The position numbers were made by a program, and so were the translations under genes. The notes beneath the pieces are model-generated. The model made no database searches and had not been told where the DNA came from. It saw nothing but the letters and a program-made list of their open reading frames with translations. Positions 4,038 to 16,503 of a stretch of 64,000 nt of DNA are shown here, piece after piece. This stretch comes from Bacteroidota bacterium. GTDB taxonomy: Bacteria; Bacteroidota; Bacteroidia; Chitinophagales; Saprospiraceae. The stretch lies in assembly GCA_009908745.1 (NCBI GenBank), contig JAAAOU010000364.1, forward strand, positions 309 to 64,308, read 5' to 3'. How positions within the stretch are numbered: the stretch's first letter is position 1; every line of letters starts with the position of its first letter.

Positions 4038-4078
4038 TTGTAGTTCCACGCAACGCCCCACTTTTGACCACGAAGGAC
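4038..4078 (+). repeat. Imperfect ~40-bp direct repeat, copy 1 (copy 2 at 4434-4475)
   Basis: ccccacttttgaccacgaaggac is identical at 4056-4078 and 4453-4475, with similar ttgtagt..cc.ac.ca.cg upstream in both copies. Confidence 0.8.
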
Positions 4079-4122
4079 CCCGCTACAGACGCTTACGGTC
4101 TGCACAGGTGCGCGGTGGACGC
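4079..4122 (+). repeat. 44-bp dispersed element, copy 1 of 3
   Basis: cccgctacagacgcttacggtctgcacaggtgcgcggtggacgc; contains the small hairpins cagac/gtctg and gcac/gtgc. Confidence 0.9.
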
Positions 4123-4243
4123 TAAACATTCGTGACTATAAGCTCTGCTTCATCCCACGCTGCAAGACGGCTGTGCCGTCGCGCAGTTATTATAGAAAAC
4201 ACAACTAAAGCAGTTTGCAACTGCGGCAACCTAAAATTCAACA

Positions 4244-4318
4244 CCCGCTACAGACGCTTACGGTCTGCACAGGTGCGCGGTGGACGCCAAGCATTCATGT
4301 ACTTTCGTGTAATTGGTG
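4244..4318 (+). repeat. 44-bp dispersed element, copy 2, with degenerate decamer tail
   Basis: 4244-4287 is identical to 4079-4122, followed by gcattcatgt-actttcgtgt-aattggtg. Confidence 0.9.
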
Positions 4319-7315: not shown

Positions 7316-7370
7316 TTTTAAAAGCTAATCTGTACTGAGAGATGCCTGATTGAAATCGGTGCTCTTCAAG

Positions 7371-7553
7371 TTACACTATAATGTACTGCAATTGTTCTCG
7401 AGCTTCCTCACCAGATAATGCTTGCCCCTTGTCAGCTTGGTCCAGCCCTTTTTCAATTTTATGCAGTACCACCAGCCGCTCGACCAGGTCATCTATGCTG
7501 AATTCATCCGGCAGGGTGTCGATAACTTCTAATACTTTCGTTTTCGCTAGCAT
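7371..7553 (-). CDS. Putative type II antitoxin of the family usually paired with RelE/ParE toxins; no toxin gene follows, and the C-terminus may be truncated
   Basis: 60 aa from the ATG at 7553: MLAKTKVLEVIDTLPDEFSIDDLVERLVVLHKIEKGLDQADKGQALSGEEAREQL. This matches my recollection of the LPxxFSxDELxExLxxxxKIExGL antitoxin pattern. Confidence 0.65.
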   Translation of the reverse strand: MLAKTKVLEVIDTLPDEFSIDDLVERLVVLHKIEKGLDQADKGQALSGEEAREQLQYIIV

Positions 7554-7673
7554 CTCAAAAGGATTTCTATAAAGATAACAAGTTCTGGGCAAAAATGCAC
7601 GGGTACCTGTTGGTGTAATTTAGTGGCTAAGCAATGCGCAATATTACGCTTGGTGATAATGAAAGTCATATTG

Positions 7674-7919
7674 ATCAGCCCAATCCGTGTTTCTATCCTT
7701 GATGCGGTATGCGGCATGCACGTGGCAGTATGGTACACTGATGCAACTGATCGGACTGATAAAACTGATCTGTCCCCGCTAGAGACGCTTACGGTCTGCA
7801 CAGGTGCGCGGTGGACGGCAAGCATTCGTGTGCATTCGTGTGCATTCGTGTAATTCGTGGCAAAAAAACGTCGAGCGATCAGGAAAATAATAAAAATCAG
7901 TGCAATCCGTGTTCCTATC
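7674..7919 (+). repeat. Mosaic of short repeats including copy 3 of the 44-bp element
   Basis: atcag..caatccgtgtt.ctatc near 7674-7697 and 7896-7919; actgat 9-mers near 7746-7770; 44-bp element at 7775-7817 (one c>g change); (gcattcgtgt)x3 at 7822-7851. Confidence 0.85.
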
Positions 7920-8130
7920 TACAGCCCGTCAGGTCAAGGCTGAGCAAGGCACAGGTGTTCGGCTAGGACGGAACAGTAAGCTATTCTTGGCAAATTTTTC
8001 AATCGGGAATATGCCTTTCAATTGCAGGCCGAGACGGCTCAAAAGCCAGCTTGCTGGCGCACCAGGCGAACACGCCCTACATGCCTCGACATAGCCTAGG
8101 CCTTATACAGCAAACTAAAGAACCAAAACT

Positions 8131-9339
8131 CTACCCTTCGCGCTCACTAACTTCCATCACCGGTAAATCATAAACCACCCCATCCACCTGCAGGCGCAGC
8201 CGTTCCCCGGTAAAAGCCGCCTCGTACTGCTCGCTTTCTTCAAACAGCAAGCTGCCGATTTTCAAAAAACGCTCCCGGCTGGGCACGGCCTCGTGTTCCT
8301 GCATACGCTCGTAGCACCAGGCGAAGTAATTGGGCAGCGGCAAAGCTTGCTCTAGGGCTTGCTGGTAGTATCGGCGGTTGAAGTACACCTGCTGACTGTC
8401 CACCGCTTCGGTTTCTTCCTCGTGCAGGACAATGTCCTCGGGGCGGTGCTCAAATTGCTGCAAGAAGAGCTCCAGGCCCACGCCGATATTGCTGCCCGTA
8501 AGGCTGAATAGCCGGCGGGCGGGCATATCCGGCACCTCGTGCAGGAAGGGGCGCTCCAGAAAGTACAGCCAGCCGCTGAGGATTTCCGACTCGGTCTGCA
8601 AGCGCTCGATGAGGGGGAGCAACTCGCGGGTCACCACATGCGATTGGCGGAGGATTTTGCGCTCCGCATCCCGCAGCAGCTCGTGCAGGCGCTCTAGCCG
8701 CAGCCGGATGCCGCTGTGAGGGTGGGCGAAACGTTCTACATTGATGTAGGCAGAGATGGTGTTCAGCAGGTTAGCGATAGAGTCCTCCCGCTTGACATCG
8801 AGGATGCGGTTGAGCGGCTCGATGTAGTGTTCGATCAGGTGGCGGGCCCGGCGGACCCGCTCGCTGTAGGCCATCTCGCCCTTGTTGGCCTTGAGGTGTT
8901 GGCTGTTTTTGAGCAGCTGGCTGGTGTTGCTCTCTACATTTTCCAGAAATTGCTGCAGCTCTTGGTAGAAAGCGTCGAGCCGCTCGGCCAGGATGAGGAT
9001 GTCGCCGTCCCGGTACTCTTGGATGCGCTCGAACAGCGACTGGAACGCCAATCGGTACTTGGCCAGCTCCTCCGGCAGCAGGGGTTTAAACTCGTTGAGC
9101 AGCAAAGCCAAGAAGGCCCGCACCGGCTCGTTAAGGCGAAAGCCGCCGGACTGGGTAAGCAGCAGCTTGTAGTCCAGCGTCCGCTTGACAATAACATCTG
9201 CTTTATCCTGCGTAATCCGCTCGAAGGCGGTTTTGCTGATCAAATTGTGCTCCAACTGCACACGGTAGAACTGCTGGAAGAGCTCAAAATTATCTTCCAG
9301 AAAGCGAAGAACCCGGTCCGGTGCAGCTTTAAGTATCAT
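8131..9339 (-). CDS. mksF: MksF-like kleisin subunit of a MukBEF-like condensin
   Basis: PDRVLRFLEDNFEL, FRLNEPVRAFLALL..E, YSERVRRARHLIEHYIEPL and QALPLPNYFAW resemble Pseudomonas MksF (from memory). The start overlaps the mksB stop (ATGA at 9336-9339). Confidence 0.75.
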   Translation of the reverse strand: MILKAAPDRVLRFLEDNFELFQQFYRVQLEHNLISKTAFERITQDKADVIVKRTLDYKLLLTQSGGFRLNEPVRAFLALLLNEFKPLLPEELAKYRLAFQSLFERIQEYRDGDILILAERLDAFYQELQQFLENVESNTSQLLKNSQHLKANKGEMAYSERVRRARHLIEHYIEPLNRILDVKREDSIANLLNTISAYINVERFAHPHSGIRLRLERLHELLRDAERKILRQSHVVTRELLPLIERLQTESEILSGWLYFLERPFLHEVPDMPARRLFSLTGSNIGVGLELFLQQFEHRPEDIVLHEEETEAVDSQQVYFNRRYYQQALEQALPLPNYFAWCYERMQEHEAVPSRERFLKIGSLLFEESEQYEAAFTGERLRLQVDGVVYDLPVMEVSEREG

Positions 9340-12008
9340 GCGGAAGCGACTTGAATGACGTGTTTGGCCTCATCCACCACCAATTGCCCGTTGGCCTGCC
9401 GCTGAATGAGCAGGTACTGGTCAAAGCCATCTACAATATCCGGCGCCGCAAAGATGGGATAGAAGTGGTGCTCGCGGCAAAAGTCCACCAACTGCGGCCG
9501 GTTCTTCCCGTCAATAGTGGCAATCTCGTCGATGAAAAGCACCACGCGGTTCTCCGGGCTGCGGTCGGACAGCCGGCTGATGACCGCCATGACGATGATG
9601 AGGCGCAGCATACGGTCCGTACCATCTGACTCCACCTGCTTGCCGAGGTTGACGGAGCGTACTTTACCGTTGATGGACAGCCGTAGCTGGAGGTTGAAGA
9701 GGTCGCTAAAGGCGATGGCCTGCCCCTTTTCCAAGTACTCCTTCAGGATGTCGAGCCGTTGGGCAGTGTGCTGCGGCATACGGAAGAGGCCATCGGTGGT
9801 CAGGGATAGCTCGGCGATAGCGCGCAGATCGCCCTGCAGGCGTTCGTTGGGCTCGAGTAGCACATTGAGGGCCTCTAGATTGGAAATCTGGATTTCGCCC
9901 AGGGTGCGGTTGAATTCATTGTGCACAAACGCCTTGAACTCCTCGTAGGCATCAAGGAAGCGCTGGGCGGGGTTGGCAAACTGCACGGCGATGCTTTCCA
10001 GCAGGCTCTCTATACTGCGCTGCTTGTCCTTAATCGACAGCATTTCCTGCTCTAGTTGCCGGGCAAACTGCTGTTCGTCGGCCAGGTCGTAGTGGGTTTT
10101 GTCGCGCAGTTGCTGGAACAGACGCTGCCGGGCTTCCCGTTTTTGCCCCAGCTCTTTGCGCAGTTGTTTGAGCTGTTGGAACAACTGCCGCAGCGGCTCG
10201 GCCCCACGCACCATTTCCTGGGCATCGGGGGCCATGCTGGGCAGCTGCATGTCCTCCACTTCTGCTTGATCCCGTTCGAGTTCGCGCTGGGCTCGTTCGC
10301 TTTCCTGTACTTCCTCCTGCAACTGGGCGATAGCGGACTGCCGGCGGCGCAGCTCTTCCTGCACCACACGGTAGGCTTTTTCTTGGGCTTCCAGCTGCTG
10401 GCTGAGTTTGCGTTTTTGGCGCTCCTGCTGTTGTATGCGCTGGCGCAGCTCGGGCAGCGTGCGCACCTGTTGCAGTTGTTGCTCTAGGCGTTGTCGTTCC
10501 GCTTTGGCCTCCTCCAAGGCGGCTTTCTGCTCTTCGTAATGCTGCGCCGTGTCCATCAATTGCTCGTAGCGCTGTCGTTCTTGCTGCAGCTCGGCGATTT
10601 CCTCGGCCAGCTGCTTCGGGTCGCTGAGGTCTTGCAGGGGGAAGTCGGCGGGTAGCTCAATCTGGCCATCAAACAGCTTTATGCTTGTGCTTGCCTGGGT
10701 GACTATTTTTTTGATCTGGCCTTTCGGCAAACGGGCGATCTCGGGGTGCAAAATGCTATTGAGCAAGCGGCGTTGCTCGTCGTCCTTGGCCAGGTGGGCG
10801 ATCAGCCAGTCGCCAACATCGGCTTCTTGGGCTTTTTTGCGTTTTATCTGCTGCTCGATCCGGTCAATGCGGCGCTGCAGCTGCTCCGCGGACTGGCTGG
10901 CGGTAGTGGTATACTGCTGCAAGCGGAACCACAGCTGCTCGATGGTTTCCTGCTGGTTTTGCAACTGCTGCTCCAGCAGATTTTCCGCCGGCAGGTCTAA
11001 GATTTGGCCCTGCTCTTCCTGTAGCTGTAGCAAGGCGGAGGCGGCTTGTTGACGCTCGTAGTCCAGCCGGCCTCGTTGCTGATTGACGCGGTCGTTTTCG
11101 GCGCTTTTTTCCTGCAGTTCTTCCTGCAGCTGGGCAATTTCCTTTTCTTTCTTTTGCTGCTGTTCCATCAGCTGGGCGCGGCGCAGATTGGCACTGGCGG
11201 AGAAGGTAGCCGTCCGCTGACAAAGCTGCTCGTACAGGTTTTCCACTTCTTCCACCAGCAGCTTGAACTGCTCGAATTCCGTTTCAATGTTTTTGAGTAC
11301 TGCCAATTGCTGGCTCTGGTAGCGCAGGCGGTCGATCTGCTGAATATTCTGCCGGCTGTAGCTCAGCTCGTCCTGGTCGCGGCTGTCGGCAATCAGCAGG
11401 ATATCTTTCAAAGCGCGATTGTCGATCAGCTTGGAGTTGATGAGGTAGCGGTAGACCTTGTTGAAGCTGTTGTAGGTGCCGCTCATCTTGCACTTGTCGG
11501 TGAGCCAGACCACGGCGTCGTTGCGTTGGCCAACCTGGTAGATGTGTTTCAGCACCTCCTGTACTTGGTCGATTTTTTTGACCTTTACCCCTTCCTCTAC
11601 CAAGTGCCGTAGCAGCTCTCTGTACGATCGCAGGTGCTGCCCGTCTGCCTGTTCATCGAAGAAGAAGTCGCGGCGGTACGCTTGTTGGAGCTGGGTGTAG
11701 TGCAGGTCGTTTTCTGCGTCCCGGTGCACCAGCATGCAGTACCGTTTTTGCCGTTTCAGTACCTCGAAAACGATGAAGCTGCGCTCCGGATTGGGGAAGT
11801 AGTGCGCCAGTGTCTCCTTGTCGGCCGTGCGCTGCCCGCTGAAGTTCATCAGCCGCTTATTGACGAGGAAGAGGAAGTTGAGGGCGTAAATCAACGAGCT
11901 CTTTCCCACGTTATTAGGGCCTACCAATTGCAGGGAGTGGCCGTGTTCAAAGCCCACTTCCGCCATTTTGTAGGCGCAGGAGTTGATAAGTACGAGTTTG
12001 GTCAGCAT
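9336..12008 (-). CDS. mksB: MksB-like SMC ATPase (condensin core subunit)
   Basis: Walker A GPNNVGKS, long Q/E-rich coiled coils, signature ESDGT, Walker B/D-loop VLFIDEIATID; no CxxC zinc hook. ATG at 12008 preferred over the TTG at 12017. Confidence 0.85.
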   Translation of the reverse strand: MLTKLVLINSCAYKMAEVGFEHGHSLQLVGPNNVGKSSLIYALNFLFLVNKRLMNFSGQRTADKETLAHYFPNPERSFIVFEVLKRQKRYCMLVHRDAENDLHYTQLQQAYRRDFFFDEQADGQHLRSYRELLRHLVEEGVKVKKIDQVQEVLKHIYQVGQRNDAVVWLTDKCKMSGTYNSFNKVYRYLINSKLIDNRALKDILLIADSRDQDELSYSRQNIQQIDRLRYQSQQLAVLKNIETEFEQFKLLVEEVENLYEQLCQRTATFSASANLRRAQLMEQQQKKEKEIAQLQEELQEKSAENDRVNQQRGRLDYERQQAASALLQLQEEQGQILDLPAENLLEQQLQNQQETIEQLWFRLQQYTTTASQSAEQLQRRIDRIEQQIKRKKAQEADVGDWLIAHLAKDDEQRRLLNSILHPEIARLPKGQIKKIVTQASTSIKLFDGQIELPADFPLQDLSDPKQLAEEIAELQQERQRYEQLMDTAQHYEEQKAALEEAKAERQRLEQQLQQVRTLPELRQRIQQQERQKRKLSQQLEAQEKAYRVVQEELRRRQSAIAQLQEEVQESERAQRELERDQAEVEDMQLPSMAPDAQEMVRGAEPLRQLFQQLKQLRKELGQKREARQRLFQQLRDKTHYDLADEQQFARQLEQEMLSIKDKQRSIESLLESIAVQFANPAQRFLDAYEEFKAFVHNEFNRTLGEIQISNLEALNVLLEPNERLQGDLRAIAELSLTTDGLFRMPQHTAQRLDILKEYLEKGQAIAFSDLFNLQLRLSINGKVRSVNLGKQVESDGTDRMLRLIIVMAVISRLSDRSPENRVVLFIDEIATIDGKNRPQLVDFCREHHFYPIFAAPDIVDGFDQYLLIQRQANGQLVVDEAKHVIQVASA

Positions 12009-12035
12009 AGCGGGCAAAGATAAATAATCTCCCCG

Positions 12036-13106
12036 CTACTCCATACGCCAAGTCGTTTTAAGCTGCTGCCGCGCCTGATGCCGTTCGACGGCGAAGCGGA
12101 GCAGCTCTTCAATGAGGTCGGGATAGGCCAGGCCAGCCGCTTCCCACAGCTGCGGGTACATACTGATGTTGGTAAAGCCGGGCAAGGTGTTGACTTCATT
12201 GACGTACACCCGGCCGTCCGGGCAGAGGAACATGTCGACACGTGCCAGCACCTCGCCGTCTAGCGCGCGGAAGGCCCGTAGCGCTACCTCCTGCAGTTGC
12301 TTGAGCTCCACCTTGGTAACTTCGGTGGGGATGAGGAGCTCGGCGGGGTTATCGTCTTCGTACTTGGCGTCGAAAGAATATTCCTCGGGGGTGATGATTT
12401 CGCCTACCGCGGTAGCCTTAGGGTGTTCGTTGCCGAGGATGGCGCACTCAAGTTCCCGACCCTCAATCATTTCTTCGATAATCAGCTTTTGGTCATACTG
12501 AAAGGCATCCTCAATGGCGGCCACAAAATCAGTTTCATTTTTGATTTTATGTACGCCTACGGAAGAGCCCATATTGGCCGGTTTTACGAAAAAGGGGCTA
12601 CCTAATTGCGCGCGGATATGCTGGTAGTCTAGCTCCGCTCTTTCGTGGGCGTGTACGACTATGCCCCGCGCTACATTCAAGCCCGCGTGTTGCAGCAGCC
12701 GTTTGGCTACATCCTTATCCATCGCTATAGCAGAGCCAAGCACATCCGGCCCGACAAAGGGCAAGTTGAGGGTGCGGAGTAAACCTTGCGTAATACCATC
12801 TTCCCCCTGCGGCCCGTGCAGGATGAGGAATACGGCGTCTATCGGCCCTATCGCTTGCTGATTGTCCAGCCGAATAATTTGCTGGCCGTTGCCGCCCGGG
12901 ACCAGAGCAAGCTGAGGGCCGGTTTCGGGCACATACTTACCGAGCTGCGCTTCCTGCAGCAGACGCCATTTGCCTTTAAAATCGACACCAATCAGCAGGA
13001 CTTCGTACTTGTCGCGGCGGATAGCGGCGAGGATGTTCTTGGCAGAACGGACGGAGATTTCATGTTCAGGGGACTTCCCCCCGCAGAGTACGGCTATAGT
13101 TTTCAA
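12036..13106 (-). CDS. ddl: D-alanine--D-alanine ligase
   Basis: GGKSPEHEISVRS, LHGPQGEDG, GSAIAMDK, KPANMGSSVG, RVDMF, NEVNTLPGFT..SMYP. Confidence 0.97.
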   Translation of the reverse strand: MKTIAVLCGGKSPEHEISVRSAKNILAAIRRDKYEVLLIGVDFKGKWRLLQEAQLGKYVPETGPQLALVPGGNGQQIIRLDNQQAIGPIDAVFLILHGPQGEDGITQGLLRTLNLPFVGPDVLGSAIAMDKDVAKRLLQHAGLNVARGIVVHAHERAELDYQHIRAQLGSPFFVKPANMGSSVGVHKIKNETDFVAAIEDAFQYDQKLIIEEMIEGRELECAILGNEHPKATAVGEIITPEEYSFDAKYEDDNPAELLIPTEVTKVELKQLQEVALRAFRALDGEVLARVDMFLCPDGRVYVNEVNTLPGFTNISMYPQLWEAAGLAYPDLIEELLRFAVERHQARQQLKTTWRME

Positions 13107-13132
13107 TGGGCGATGGTTTTACGCGCAAGTTC

Positions 13133-13173
13133 AAAAAAAATCCCCACTTGATTGAGGTATCAAGCGGGGATTT
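13133..13173 (-). terminator. Intrinsic terminator downstream of rho
   Basis: 15-bp stem (13138-13152 / 13159-13173). The single mismatch is a G-U pair on the minus-strand RNA. The A8 tract at 13133-13140 gives the U-tail. Confidence 0.8.
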
Positions 13174-13194
13174 GTGTTTCGCTATTGCTCGTTC

Positions 13195-14847
13195 TTATCC
13201 ATTCATAGAAGTCAGGAACTCTTCGTTGCTCTGCGTGCTGACCATGTGTTTGCGCAGGAATTCGAACGCTTCGTCCGGCTTCATGTCGGCCAGGTGGTTG
13301 CGTAGGATGAACATACGCTGCAAGGCATCCTTGTCCAACAGCAGATCCTCGCGGCGGGTGCTCGACTTGGTGAGGTCGATGGCCGGGTAGAGGCGCTTGT
13401 TGGCCAGGGAGCGGTCGAGTTGCAGCTCCATGTTGCCGGTACCTTTGAATTCCTCAAAGATCACACCGTCCATCTTGGAGCCGGTATCGATCAAGGCGGT
13501 AGCCAGAATCGTCAGCGAGCCGCCGTCTTCGATATTACGGGCCGCACCAAAGAACTTCTTCGGCTTGTGCAGGGCGTTGGCTTCTACACCACCGGAGAGG
13601 ACTTTGCCGCTAGCCGGAGCCACGGTGTTGTAAGCCCGTGCCAGGCGGGTGATGGAGTCAAGCAGGATCACTACATCGTGGCCGCTTTCCACCAAGCGCT
13701 TTGCTTTTTCGAGTACGATGCCCGCCACGCGCACGTGGTTTTCGGCCGGCTCGTCGAAGGTGGAAGATACTACTTCGGCGTTCACGCTGCGCTTCATGTC
13801 GGTGACTTCTTCCGGGCGCTCGTCGATGAGCAGCACGATCATGTAGCATTCGGGGTGGTTTTTCGCCACCGCGTTAGCCACGTCTTTTAGCAAGAAGGTC
13901 TTACCCGTTTTGGGTTGCGCGACAATCAGCCCACGCTGGCCTTTGCCGATAGGCGTGAACAGGTCGATCATGCGGTTGCCGATGTCTTTGCCCGTTGGAG
14001 AGGAGGTCAGGGAGAACTTCTCTGTGGGGAACAAGGGCGTGAGGTAGTCAAAGGGTACGCGGTCACGGACGTCCTGCGGAGCGAGGCCGTTGATTTTGGA
14101 AACCCGGAGCAGGGCGAAGTACTTTTCCCCTTCTTTGGGAGGGCGGATAGCGCCGCGGACCGTATCGCCAGTCCGCAAGCCAAAGAGTTTGATCTGCGAA
14201 GGAGACACATATATATCGTCTGGTGAGGTCAGGTAGTTGTAGTCCGAAGAGCGGAGAAAGCCGTAGCCATCGGGCATCATTTCCAGGATACCTTCGCCTT
14301 CGACAATACCATCGAGTTCGATATCGAACTTTTCCTCTTTTGATTTGGGCGGGTCCTGCTTTTTGGATTTACCGTGGTCTTTGTCGTTATCGGGGCGACG
14401 GCGGCTATCCGGCTGCTTTTCGGGCGGGTTGGGCTTATCGGCGGGTTTAGGGTCGGCGGCAGGTTTGGGGTCCGGTTTGGAAGACTTGCTCTCGTCCTTA
14501 GCTTTGCCGCGGACCGTGCGGCGGCGGGGAGGCTCTTTGTCCTCGTCCTTGGACTTGGGTTTGGATTTGCCGCGTCCGCCTTCATCCGACGATTTGGAAG
14601 AGCGGCCGCTGTCTTTTTTGCTACCGCGGGTGCGGCGCGTACGGCTAGGTTTGTCATCGCTTTGTTCCTCCCCTTTGCTGCTTTTGGGTTCCTGGCCGTT
14701 GGAGTCGCCGGAAGCAGCTTGGTGGTCGAGGATTTTATAGATGAGTTCTTGTTTGTTGAGCCGCTTATACCCTTTCAACCCTAGCTTTTCAGCGAGCTCT
14801 CTCAGCTCGGGCACAAGCATGTAGTTCAACTGTGAAATATCCAACAT
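13195..14847 (-). CDS. rho: Transcription termination factor Rho with a long low-complexity N-terminal insertion
   Basis: Rho_N ([10 protein letters not shown]...KQELIYKIL), [10 protein letters not shown]...[49 protein letters not shown]. Confidence 0.98.
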
Positions 14848-15128
14848 AATATTGATCGTGTGTTACTTTGTGTTAGAATTGATAAAAAGAAGACGTTTTG
14901 TTCTGTTATTACATCTAAAAAGCTGTGGAAAAAAGAACAGTGGAGAATAATCTGTTTTACCAGAGGTACGCCAAGACTAAAAGCTATTGCCACCCATCAA
15001 CCCTTATCTAACAAGTAATGTAAATTGGAGTGAAATGTAGCACCTAAATTGGTACAGGGGGTAGCTTGCTTGATGTGCATTCGCGCTTTGGTGCTACAAA
15101 AATACGTTTATTTTCTCAATTCAAATAG

Positions 15129-15136
15129 TATCTTTG
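15129..15136 (+). promoter_or_regulatory. Bacteroidota housekeeping -7 promoter element (TAnnTTTG) for serS
   Basis: TAtcTTTG about 80 bp upstream of the ATG at 15217. Confidence 0.6.
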
Positions 15137-15216
15137 CAAAAAAAAGAACCAATACTTGCTTCCAAAGTTCATTGCGCCTTGAATTTTTCGGCACAGAAGC
15201 AAATCAAAATTATCTT

Positions 15217-16503
15217 ATGCTTGAACTTAACTACCTGAGGGCCAATACACAACGTGTTAAAGCCGGGCTAAGAGTCAGGAGCTTGCCCGAGGAGGAACAA
15301 CGCATTGTCGATGACATCATAGCATTAGACGACCGCCGGAAGGCACTGCAGACGGAACTGGATCAACTGCTGGCAGAACGCAACGCTTTGTCGAAGGAGA
15401 TCGGCGGTTTGTTCAAATCCGGGAAACGCGAAGAAGCGGAAGCCAAGCGCGCCCGGGTAAACGAGATTAAAGAGGAGGCCTCAGCTACCGAGGAGCAGCT
15501 CAAGGCTGCTAAGGTGCAACTGGAAGACTTATTGTATAAGGTGCCTAACGTGCCCCATGAATCGGTGCCGGCCGGCGACAGCGACGAAGACAATGAGGTT
15601 TACCAAGACTGGTCAGGGGGCCTGCCCCAACTGCCGGAAGGGTCACTACCGCACTGGGAGCTGGCGCAGTACTATCCGCTGTTCGACCTGGAGCTGGGCA
15701 CCAAACTCACCGGTTCGGGCTTTCCAGTCTATCGCGGCAAAGGTGCACGGCTACAGCGGTCCCTAATTCAGTTTTTCTTGGACGAAGCCGCCAAAGCAGG
15801 CTATGAGGAAATCCTGCCGCCCTTGATCGTCAATGATGCGACGGCCCGGGCTACCGGTCAGTTGCCAGACAAAGAGGGGCAAATGTATCATATCGAACGG
15901 GAGGATTTCTACCTCATCCCTACGGCGGAGGTGCCGATTACCAACATCTACCGGGACGTGATTTTGGAGGAAAAAGACTTTCCGATCAAAATGACGGGGC
16001 ACACCCCTTGTTTTCGCCGGGAGGCGGGCTCTTACGGCGCAGATGTGCGCGGCCTGAACCGGGTCCACCAATTTGAAAAAGTGGAGATCGTGCAGATTCA
16101 GCACCCGGATAAATCCTACGAGACGCTGGAGGAGATGCTGCAGCACGTGGGGGGATTGCTCGACAAGCTGGAGCTCCCTTACCGCATTCTGCGGCTGTGC
16201 GGCGGCGACCTGGGCTTCACGGCCGCTCTGACGTTTGACTTTGAGGTCTACTCAGCGGCGCAGAAACGCTGGCTGGAGGTCAGCTCCGTGTCCAATTTCG
16301 AGACCTATCAGTCCAACCGGATGAAGCTGCGTTTCAAGGATGGCAAGCAGTCTCGCCTAGCGCACACCCTCAACGGTTCGGCACTGGCATTGGCCCGTAT
16401 CGTAGCGGCTTTGATCGAAAACAATCAGACGCCAGACGGCATTATGATTCCTAAAGTGTTACAGGATTATACGGGCTTTGACCGCATCGAGAAAAAGGCG
16501 TGA
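15217..16503 (+). CDS. serS: Serine--tRNA ligase
   Basis: MLELNYLR, PNVPHESVP.G, LIPTAEVP, FRREAGSYG...GLNRVHQFEKVE, EVSSVSNF..YQ..R, HTLNGS.LA. Start placed at ATG 15217. Confidence 0.97.
   Translation: MLELNYLRANTQRVKAGLRVRSLPEEEQRIVDDIIALDDRRKALQTELDQLLAERNALSKEIGGLFKSGKREEAEAKRARVNEIKEEASATEEQLKAAKVQLEDLLYKVPNVPHESVPAGDSDEDNEVYQDWSGGLPQLPEGSLPHWELAQYYPLFDLELGTKLTGSGFPVYRGKGARLQRSLIQFFLDEAAKAGYEEILPPLIVNDATARATGQLPDKEGQMYHIEREDFYLIPTAEVPITNIYRDVILEEKDFPIKMTGHTPCFRREAGSYGADVRGLNRVHQFEKVEIVQIQHPDKSYETLEEMLQHVGGLLDKLELPYRILRLCGGDLGFTAALTFDFEVYSAAQKRWLEVSSVSNFETYQSNRMKLRFKDGKQSRLAHTLNGSALALARIVAALIENNQTPDGIMIPKVLQDYTGFDRIEKKA

Follow-up and report, generated by a model that had tools for sequence, protein, structure and literature searches.

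Does a locus that encodes an SMC ATPase and a kleisin, with neither a KITE gene nor a nuclease gene beside them, specify a two-subunit complex, or is the remaining subunit encoded elsewhere? The question is raised by the mksB-mksF gene pair at positions 8131-12008 of a 64,000-nucleotide stretch (hereafter the window) from a Bacteroidota bacterium of the family Saprospiraceae (GenBank assembly GCA_009908745.1, contig JAAAOU010000364.1, positions 309 to 64,308), for which an earlier reading of the DNA letters, the original prediction, had left both possibilities standing. We report that the genome carries a single mksE gene on another contig and that this gene appears, from sequence comparison, to be orthologous to the mksE located after mksF in related operons. 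Our data suggest that MksB, MksF and the trans-encoded MksE (B, F and E below; G for the nuclease MksG) probably make up a three-subunit, nuclease-less complex, and place it in a Bacteroidota branch of the Wadjet/MksBEF(G) group that is compact and has the ATPase gene first. Wadjet, also named JetABCD, MksBEFG or EptABCD, is known in types I to III; a literature search found no description of the Bacteroidota branch.

Gene content of the locus

The gene pair, its upstream neighbour and the DNA that follows it are arranged as listed.

9336..12008, minus strand: mksB/jetC-like SMC ATPase gene, 890 aa from the ATG
8131..9339, minus strand: mksF/jetA-like kleisin gene, 402 aa
9336..9339, minus strand: ATGA overlap of the mksB stop (TGA) and the mksF start
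12036..13106, minus strand: ddl, D-Ala-D-Ala ligase, the upstream neighbour (Pfam Dala_Dala_lig_N and Dala_Dala_lig_C)
7316..8130: non-coding stretch of 815 nt 3' of mksF, the slot of mksE in relatives, with short tandem and direct/dispersed repeats

The upstream open reading frame (ORF) was listed as 9336-12017 from a TTG, and since every homologue opens with MLTKLVLINS the likely start is the ATG at 12008. Coupling of an SMC ATPase gene to the 402-aa gene by ATGA, as originally described, was confirmed. The same holds for the lack of room for mksE: ddl (end at 12036) lies 27 nt from the mksB ATG, the DNA on the other side is non-coding and bears repeats, and tblastn with the MksE and MksG proteins of relatives found no remnant of either gene in the window (best E 0.17, in unrelated places). 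A chance pair of ORFs is ruled against by hundreds of B, F and E homologues in fixed synteny together with low ratios of nonsynonymous to synonymous substitution (dN/dS).

An unlinked mksE in the same genome

In the metagenome-assembled genome (MAG; 95.4% complete, 541 contigs) to which the window belongs, one gene scores above the cut-off of the Pfam MksE profile, and it lies outside the window.

C399:28548-29090 (genome G000), minus strand: mksE, 180 aa; Pfam MksE (PF21980) 75.7 bits, cut-off 27

It sits between skp/OmpH and an O-methyltransferase gene. Family hidden Markov models (HMMs) returned B, F and E once each in this genome; DUF4194 (JetB) and DUF3375 (JetA) are absent from it, and the MksE on C399 has no DUF4194 match. 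Four related loci serve for comparison, with the identity of their F to that of the window.

L012, F 90% identical: rho-ddl-B-F, then contig end
L013, F 67% identical: B-F-E
L014, F 54% identical: B-G-F-E
Flavobacterium psychrotrophum, F 33% identical: B (885 aa), 264-aa protein, F (403 aa), 179-aa protein

When the orphan E is compared with its operon-encoded counterparts, its identity tracks that of its presumed partners: 76% against 67% for F and 69% for B with L013, 62% against 54% for F with L014, and 36% against 33% for F with F. psychrotrophum. Because of this tracking we regard the C399 gene, an ortholog of operon-encoded mksE as judged by its sequence, as the cognate subunit in a new place. 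Moreover, two other species-level genomes, G061 (L019) and G062 (L020), also have B-F without an adjacent E, and in both the mksE gene is on another contig, beside the same O-methyltransferase gene, and 86% and 83% identical, respectively, to mksE on C399. A tree of B groups the split-E genomes (the window, L012 and L019) in a single clade (support 88/90), which the F tree does not contradict. The breakpoint is placed at the F/E junction because F of the window and of L012 ends approximately 10 residues earlier than in the B-F-E relatives.

These results decide between the two possibilities left by the original prediction. A KITE-less complex is not supported, given a conventional mksE on C399 that is orthologous, at the sequence level, to the E gene 3' of mksF in relatives; an E subunit encoded elsewhere is what the genome contains. 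Searches with MksE/JetB and JetD profiles across the genome and its relatives, proposed at the same time, gave one unlinked mksE in the former and B-(G)-F-E in the latter.

The surroundings of mksE differ between the genomes. In the genome of the window (L011:8896-10672, on C399) skp, mksE and the O-methyltransferase gene follow each other in one direction, and in G061 and G062 (L095 and L096) this O-methyltransferase gene and mksE face each other head-to-head, a usp gene coming next; mksE is inverted relative to the O-methyltransferase gene between the two arrangements.

Mis-binning of C399 was considered and is unlikely, as its composition matches that of contig C102 (tetranucleotide r = 0.976; the median of the other contigs is 0.947) and the same split is seen in two independent MAGs.

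Gene order and loss of the nuclease gene among relatives

A locus scan with one genome per species gave 333 related loci, 80 of which were kept, and their genes were classed with the family HMMs. The gene orders were B-F-E (52), B-G-F-E (26, and two more truncated) and B-F only (four). E is joined to the operon in 78 of 82 related loci, G in 26-28 of about 82, and all of the approximately 80 related loci are ATPase-first, B-(G)-F-E. The reversed order that had been pointed out is therefore real in that the ATPase gene comes first, and it is not special to this locus. Phaeodactylibacter xiamenensis and P. luteus keep E in the operon, and the cultured P. xiamenensis KD52 is B-F-E; four-gene relatives include F. 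psychrotrophum, Daejeonia sp. YH14 and Lewinella cohaerens.

Pfam MksE (PF21980) recognises the 179-aa protein of F. psychrotrophum at 68 bits; JetD_C, at 22.1 bits against a cut-off of 22, and PADLOC JetD both match the protein of 264 aa. The G proteins share an invariant glutamate in CxVEN, a DxD pair, HxYGR and FLEQ, a pattern that identifies G, at the level of sequence motifs, as a JetD-like Toprim active site behind a small N-terminal domain resembling a winged helix.

No G gene was found in the genome of the window with JetD_C, the F. psychrotrophum G or the family G HMM at E<=10, which extends to the whole MAG the lack of G noted originally at the locus, where no mksG remnant is left. 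Mapped on the F tree, G switches between present and absent no fewer than six times, and well-supported branches force four of these switches; in each of the two main clades the basal lineages carry G. Some loci have almost the same F but not the same G state (L070 vs L062, and L049 vs L046). The window falls within a G-less clade of 15 loci with F identities down to 51%. The most parsimonious history for these trees would start with a B-G-F-E operon from which G was repeatedly lost. No conserved gene that might be a replacement effector was found beside the 56 G-less loci, the flanks of which are clade-specific housekeeping genes. An origin of MksBEF by loss of JetD from a JetABCD-type system is published precedent (PMC10586767), so the nuclease-less state as such is only moderately surprising.

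Some individual loci stand apart. In Membranicola marinus (L007/L008, 5475-7999) mksB has broken up into five or more frames and mksG is reduced to its final 58 residues, with mksF and mksE intact. The operon of F. psychrotrophum (CP031557; L006:1-4112, 10098-16109) has HNH_4, DUF6922, AbiEii and a 2003-aa NPHP3_N-type NTPase as neighbours, by gene content a defence-island-like neighbourhood. The MAGs in which L046 and L052 were found are labelled Vulcanococcus, a cyanobacterium, and Bifidobacterium; these two loci probably reflect mis-binned contigs rather than transfer.

The SMC ATPase MksB

The motifs of MksB are given by residue and by window coordinates.

11898..11921, minus strand: Walker A, G30-P-N-N-V-G-K-S37 (G30, N32, N33, G35, K36 and S37 invariant in 28 homologues)
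10620..10811, minus strand: hinge-like region, residues 400-463, with a conserved F-D-G motif
9615..9632, minus strand: ABC signature-like motif, E793-S-D-G-T-D798 (Q791 and E793-D798 invariant in 28 homologues)
9525..9545, minus strand: Walker B, VVLFIDE, with D827 and the catalytic E828 (F825, D827 and E828 invariant)

A D-loop with invariant T831, I832 and D833 follows Walker B. The protein matches Pfam DUF3584, the JetC/MksB family (45.6 bits, cut-off 31), and the PADLOC JetC models weakly. Specifically, the AlphaFold2 (AF2) model, built from 28 homologues with a predicted local distance difference test score (pLDDT) of 79.7, has two head halves (1-215 and 711-890) and an antiparallel coiled coil with breaks (219-399 and 464-704). 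Between the coils, residues 400-463 have L402, N417, D447 and G448 invariant and a pLDDT <50 in the monomer model; no SMC_hinge domain was found in MksB by Pfam scan, and scans at E<=1 matched none of the Muk Pfam families (MukB, MukE and MukF) to proteins of the window. Foldseek against the PDB places MukB first (7.7e-19), followed by JetC of type II and type I Wadjet (2e-14), the MukB/JetC matches ranging from 1e-19 to 1e-12. On the strength of its sequence and predicted structure MksB is thus best described as a MukB/JetC-class SMC ATPase with intact motifs, in line with the SMC ATPase MksB first proposed.

Two other assignments were rejected. For Rad50/SbcC there is no zinc hook (the apex at 400-463 has no cysteine), the partner is a kleisin, and Rad50 ranks below MukB and JetC in the structural search, as does Smc5/6. 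For the Lamassu protein LmuB the PADLOC match has an E of 0.15, LmuB again ranks lower, and the partner is a kleisin.

The kleisin MksF

The AF2 model of MksF (41 homologues, pLDDT 77.9) divides the protein into four parts.

9133-9321, minus strand: N-terminal winged helix, residues 7-69
8554-9075, minus strand: helical bundle, residues 89-262
8380-8553, minus strand: disordered linker, residues 263-320
8143-8376, minus strand: C-terminal helices and beta hairpin, residues 322-399

Its best Foldseek matches in the PDB are Wadjet-II JetA 9qe0_E (1.8e-4) and JetA 8q72_E, and MukF is matched by 3euh_A, 1t98, 7nyw_C and 9gm7_D. This layout and these matches agree with the kleisin/winged-helix fold expected of the 402-aa protein, and the predicted fold together with the operon context points to MksF being a MukF/JetA-like kleisin.

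Sequence searches give a different picture. MksF has no Pfam, PADLOC or NCBIfam match (the Pfam copy scanned did not include PF28010.1, which some homologues carry in precomputed annotation) and no sequence profile link to DUF3375/JetA; PADLOC and NCBIfam have no model that matches E either. The homologues of MksF are proteins of approximately 400 aa annotated as hypothetical, nearly all from Bacteroidota assemblies. An F profile run against 1.84 billion representatives gave 195 clusters (50% identity), all of approximately 400 aa, and the distant ones have no Pfam match and hence offer no transitive link to DUF3375. When PDB chains were searched by sequence, with single proteins or family profiles for all four subunits (F, B, E and G), coiled-coil noise or nothing was returned. 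In sequence the system is far removed from the characterised ones, and its tie to JetABCD and MukBEF is seen only by fold and through Pfam DUF3584, MksE and JetD_C.

A second, more divergent class of kleisin was also encountered (G150:C235:3495-4691 and G134:C6:144645-145841; 233-257 bits against the family profile). In G150 it occurs in addition to a copy of the first class, and paralogous systems may coexist.

Selection and distribution

In comparison with L012, the closest relative (dS 0.9-1.4), B gave a dN/dS of 0.047 and F one of 0.071, and in other pairs the ratio was 0.05-0.15; E had dN of 0.06-0.11 with saturated dS. These values indicate that B, F and E have been under purifying selection since the split, and all three are full-length with all family-invariant residues present.

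The family is uncommon. Among 60 other genera of the same taxonomic family F turned up in one, and among 400 sampled Bacteroidota genomes in five, across five families. Canonical Smc-ScpAB, a check suggested with the original prediction, is also present in the genome: Smc (1188 aa), ScpA and ScpB are encoded on three different contigs. Since smc, scpA and scpB are likewise unlinked, trans-encoded subunits are normal in this genome, and since the family is rare and patchy and Smc-ScpAB is there, the system is accessory and not the main condensin.

Upstream and downstream sequences

Two further elements lie on the upstream side.

12015..12022, minus strand: TATCTTTG, which fits TAnnTTTG, the -7 promoter motif of Bacteroidota; it is placed 14 nt upstream of the mksB start codon and ends 7 nt before the ATG
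13138..13173, minus strand: terminator-like hairpin of 15 pairs between rho and ddl

TAnnTTTG occurs at the same distance in L012, L016, L019 and L022, irrespective of the upstream gene. The conserved motif suggests that mksBF has its own promoter and, from its position, that the transcript may be leaderless or have a very short leader. The ddl synteny is common only to L012, where the locus is 90% identical, other Phaeodactylibacter loci being in other contexts. A functional link of mksBF to ddl was thus rejected, mksB having its own conserved TAnnTTTG, and the adjacency is incidental.

Several repeats were seen in the non-coding DNA downstream: at 7822-7851 GCATTCGTGT occurs three times in tandem, at 7737-7770 a 9-nt unit based on ACTGAT is present in three copies, and a direct repeat of 60 nt has its two copies, which are 70% identical, at 7638-7697 and 7860-7919. 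Parts of this stretch are also found near positions 4078-4310 of the window and on contigs C6, C167 and C61, and by their sequence they look like a dispersed intergenic repeat family. Beyond the repeats, just upstream of a gene for a protein with a type IX secretion system (T9SS) tail, is a 73-aa ORF at 7371-7592 on the minus strand (MLAKTKVLEVIDTLPDEFSIDDLVERLVVLHKIEKG...); it has no Pfam match and looks like a putative small protein of antitoxin type.

Proposed explanation

We propose the following course of events and mode of action. The ancestor would have had B-G-F-E, with G a short JetD-like Toprim nuclease, and G would have been deleted in the lineage of the window. A later event, in the ancestor shared by this genome and the two sister genomes, would have cut mksE off at the F/E junction and moved it beside the O-methyltransferase gene, today on C399. 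In the complex, MksB would dimerise via its small hinge, a C-terminal winged helix of MksF would bind the head cap and the N-terminal part of MksF the neck, and the N-terminal winged helix and bundle would probably dimerise the complex, as in MukF and JetA. A dimer of MksE, made from a separate transcript, would attach to the central part of MksF. The motifs for binding and hydrolysing ATP are all intact, and ATP turnover would drive DNA entrapment or loading and loop extrusion. As there is no Toprim partner, the complex itself would not cleave DNA. By analogy the most likely role is that of an accessory DNA-organising motor beside Smc-ScpAB, such as P. aeruginosa MksBEF, or plasmid handling without cutting; the earlier suggestion of a chromosome condensin rather than a defence system is plausible.

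Several points weigh against this explanation. The genome is a MAG of 541 contigs, approximately 95% complete, so that G, or a further E, might have escaped assembly; for most comparisons dS is saturated; MksF is called a kleisin by fold, with template modelling (TM) scores of 0.2-0.35, low values being expected of a flexible multi-domain protein; the rarity and patchiness of the family make a core chromosome role doubtful; and some family copies, such as L007/L008, are decaying.

Alternative explanations

The system could still act against plasmids or other mobile genetic elements, B-F-E sensing small circular DNA and either a nuclease encoded in trans or a non-cleaving block (silencing, or interference with segregation) doing the rest. 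The ancestry of the family, with its JetD-like Toprim gene, its patchy spread through the family and the phylum, the AbiEii and HNH genes beside the F. psychrotrophum copy and the fact that chromosome segregation is already covered by Smc-ScpAB all speak for such a role. Yet the genome has no G homologue that we could find, the 56 G-less loci have no extra flanking gene in common and lie in stable housekeeping contexts, and restriction by characterised Wadjet/MksBEFG needs all four subunits (PMC10586767). On balance we consider an anti-plasmid function unlikely.

That B-F is a remnant, non-functional after the loss of G and the disruption of the operon and heading towards pseudogenes, is very improbable. 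Recurrent and recent loss of G, at least six changes of state with near-identical F pairs that differ in G, would fit decay, as would the relative with a fragmented B and a G stub; set against this are the intact B, F and E, the low dN/dS to the closest relative, a G-less clade that spans F identities down to 51% and the conserved promoter motif upstream of mksB. Long retention under selection in housekeeping contexts, as read from these sequences, argues against mere decay.

Equally hard to credit is a two-subunit SMC-kleisin complex without KITE, with the C399 gene unrelated or working elsewhere, which would suit the translational coupling of B and F and the lack of an adjacent E, but the only MksE of the genome is the ortholog of an operon-encoded E, is under purifying selection and is kept in three of three split genomes, and 78 of 82 related loci hold E in the operon.

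Comparison with known systems

The three-subunit complex that we favour shares with Wadjet a MukB-like SMC with elbowed coiled coil and small hinge, a MukF-like kleisin, a KITE subunit and a patchy, accessory distribution, and its relatives have a Toprim nuclease with the conserved E and DxD. In contrast to Wadjet, no nuclease was found in this genome and the KITE gene is unlinked; the order in the family is C-(D)-A-B, i.e. B-(G)-F-E, rather than A-B-C-D (F-E-B-G); the subunits are smaller (B 890 aa compared with JetC chains of approximately 1100-1370 aa, G approximately 264 aa); the PADLOC JetA and JetB models miss F and E and those for JetC and JetD match weakly; and E matches Pfam MksE (PF21980), not DUF4194. 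Two features that define Wadjet, the nuclease and the operon order, are thus lacking in this genome.

P. aeruginosa MksBEF is alike in having B, E and F without G, in coexisting with Smc-ScpAB and in an E that matches Pfam MksE. It differs in that no single F-E-B operon unites the genes here, no match of the kleisin to DUF3375 could be detected, the family is rare and confined to Bacteroidota, and a chromosome role is putative. MukBEF supplies the best structural match for B and is among the best for F, with an N-terminal winged-helix domain and a helical bundle in both kleisins; no Muk Pfam family was matched here, however, B has approximately 60% of the length of MukB, and MukBEF replaces Smc-ScpAB whereas here Smc-ScpAB is present. 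Finally, Smc-ScpAB has the same SMC, kleisin and KITE architecture and likewise unlinked genes in this genome, but it exists as a separate canonical copy, B has no SMC_hinge domain, and F is not ScpA. The relocated KITE gene is the element specific to the window.

Significance

A locus without a KITE gene need not encode a KITE-less SMC complex, and whole-genome checks are needed before such a complex is proposed. Our analysis adds to the Wadjet/MksBEF group a compact, ATPase-first Bacteroidota branch that is largely missed by PADLOC and Pfam and the kleisin of which has no model in the Pfam copy used. The lineage may also be a series caught in the middle of converting a plasmid-cutting SMC system into a host chromosomal motor, a possibility that we raise tentatively and with some doubt; the steps may have led from B-G-F-E, by repeated deletion of the nuclease, to B-F-E and on to B-F with an unlinked E among housekeeping genes, like scpA and scpB. 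The question is made testable by the cultured carrier P. xiamenensis KD52 and by the four-gene relatives. Recurrent loss of the Toprim gene with the SMC core kept under selection bears on the proposed Wadjet-like origin of MksBEF and MukBEF, and if it is true that the G-less complexes organise the chromosome or silence plasmids without cutting, they would be several independent natural replicates of the step proposed for that origin.

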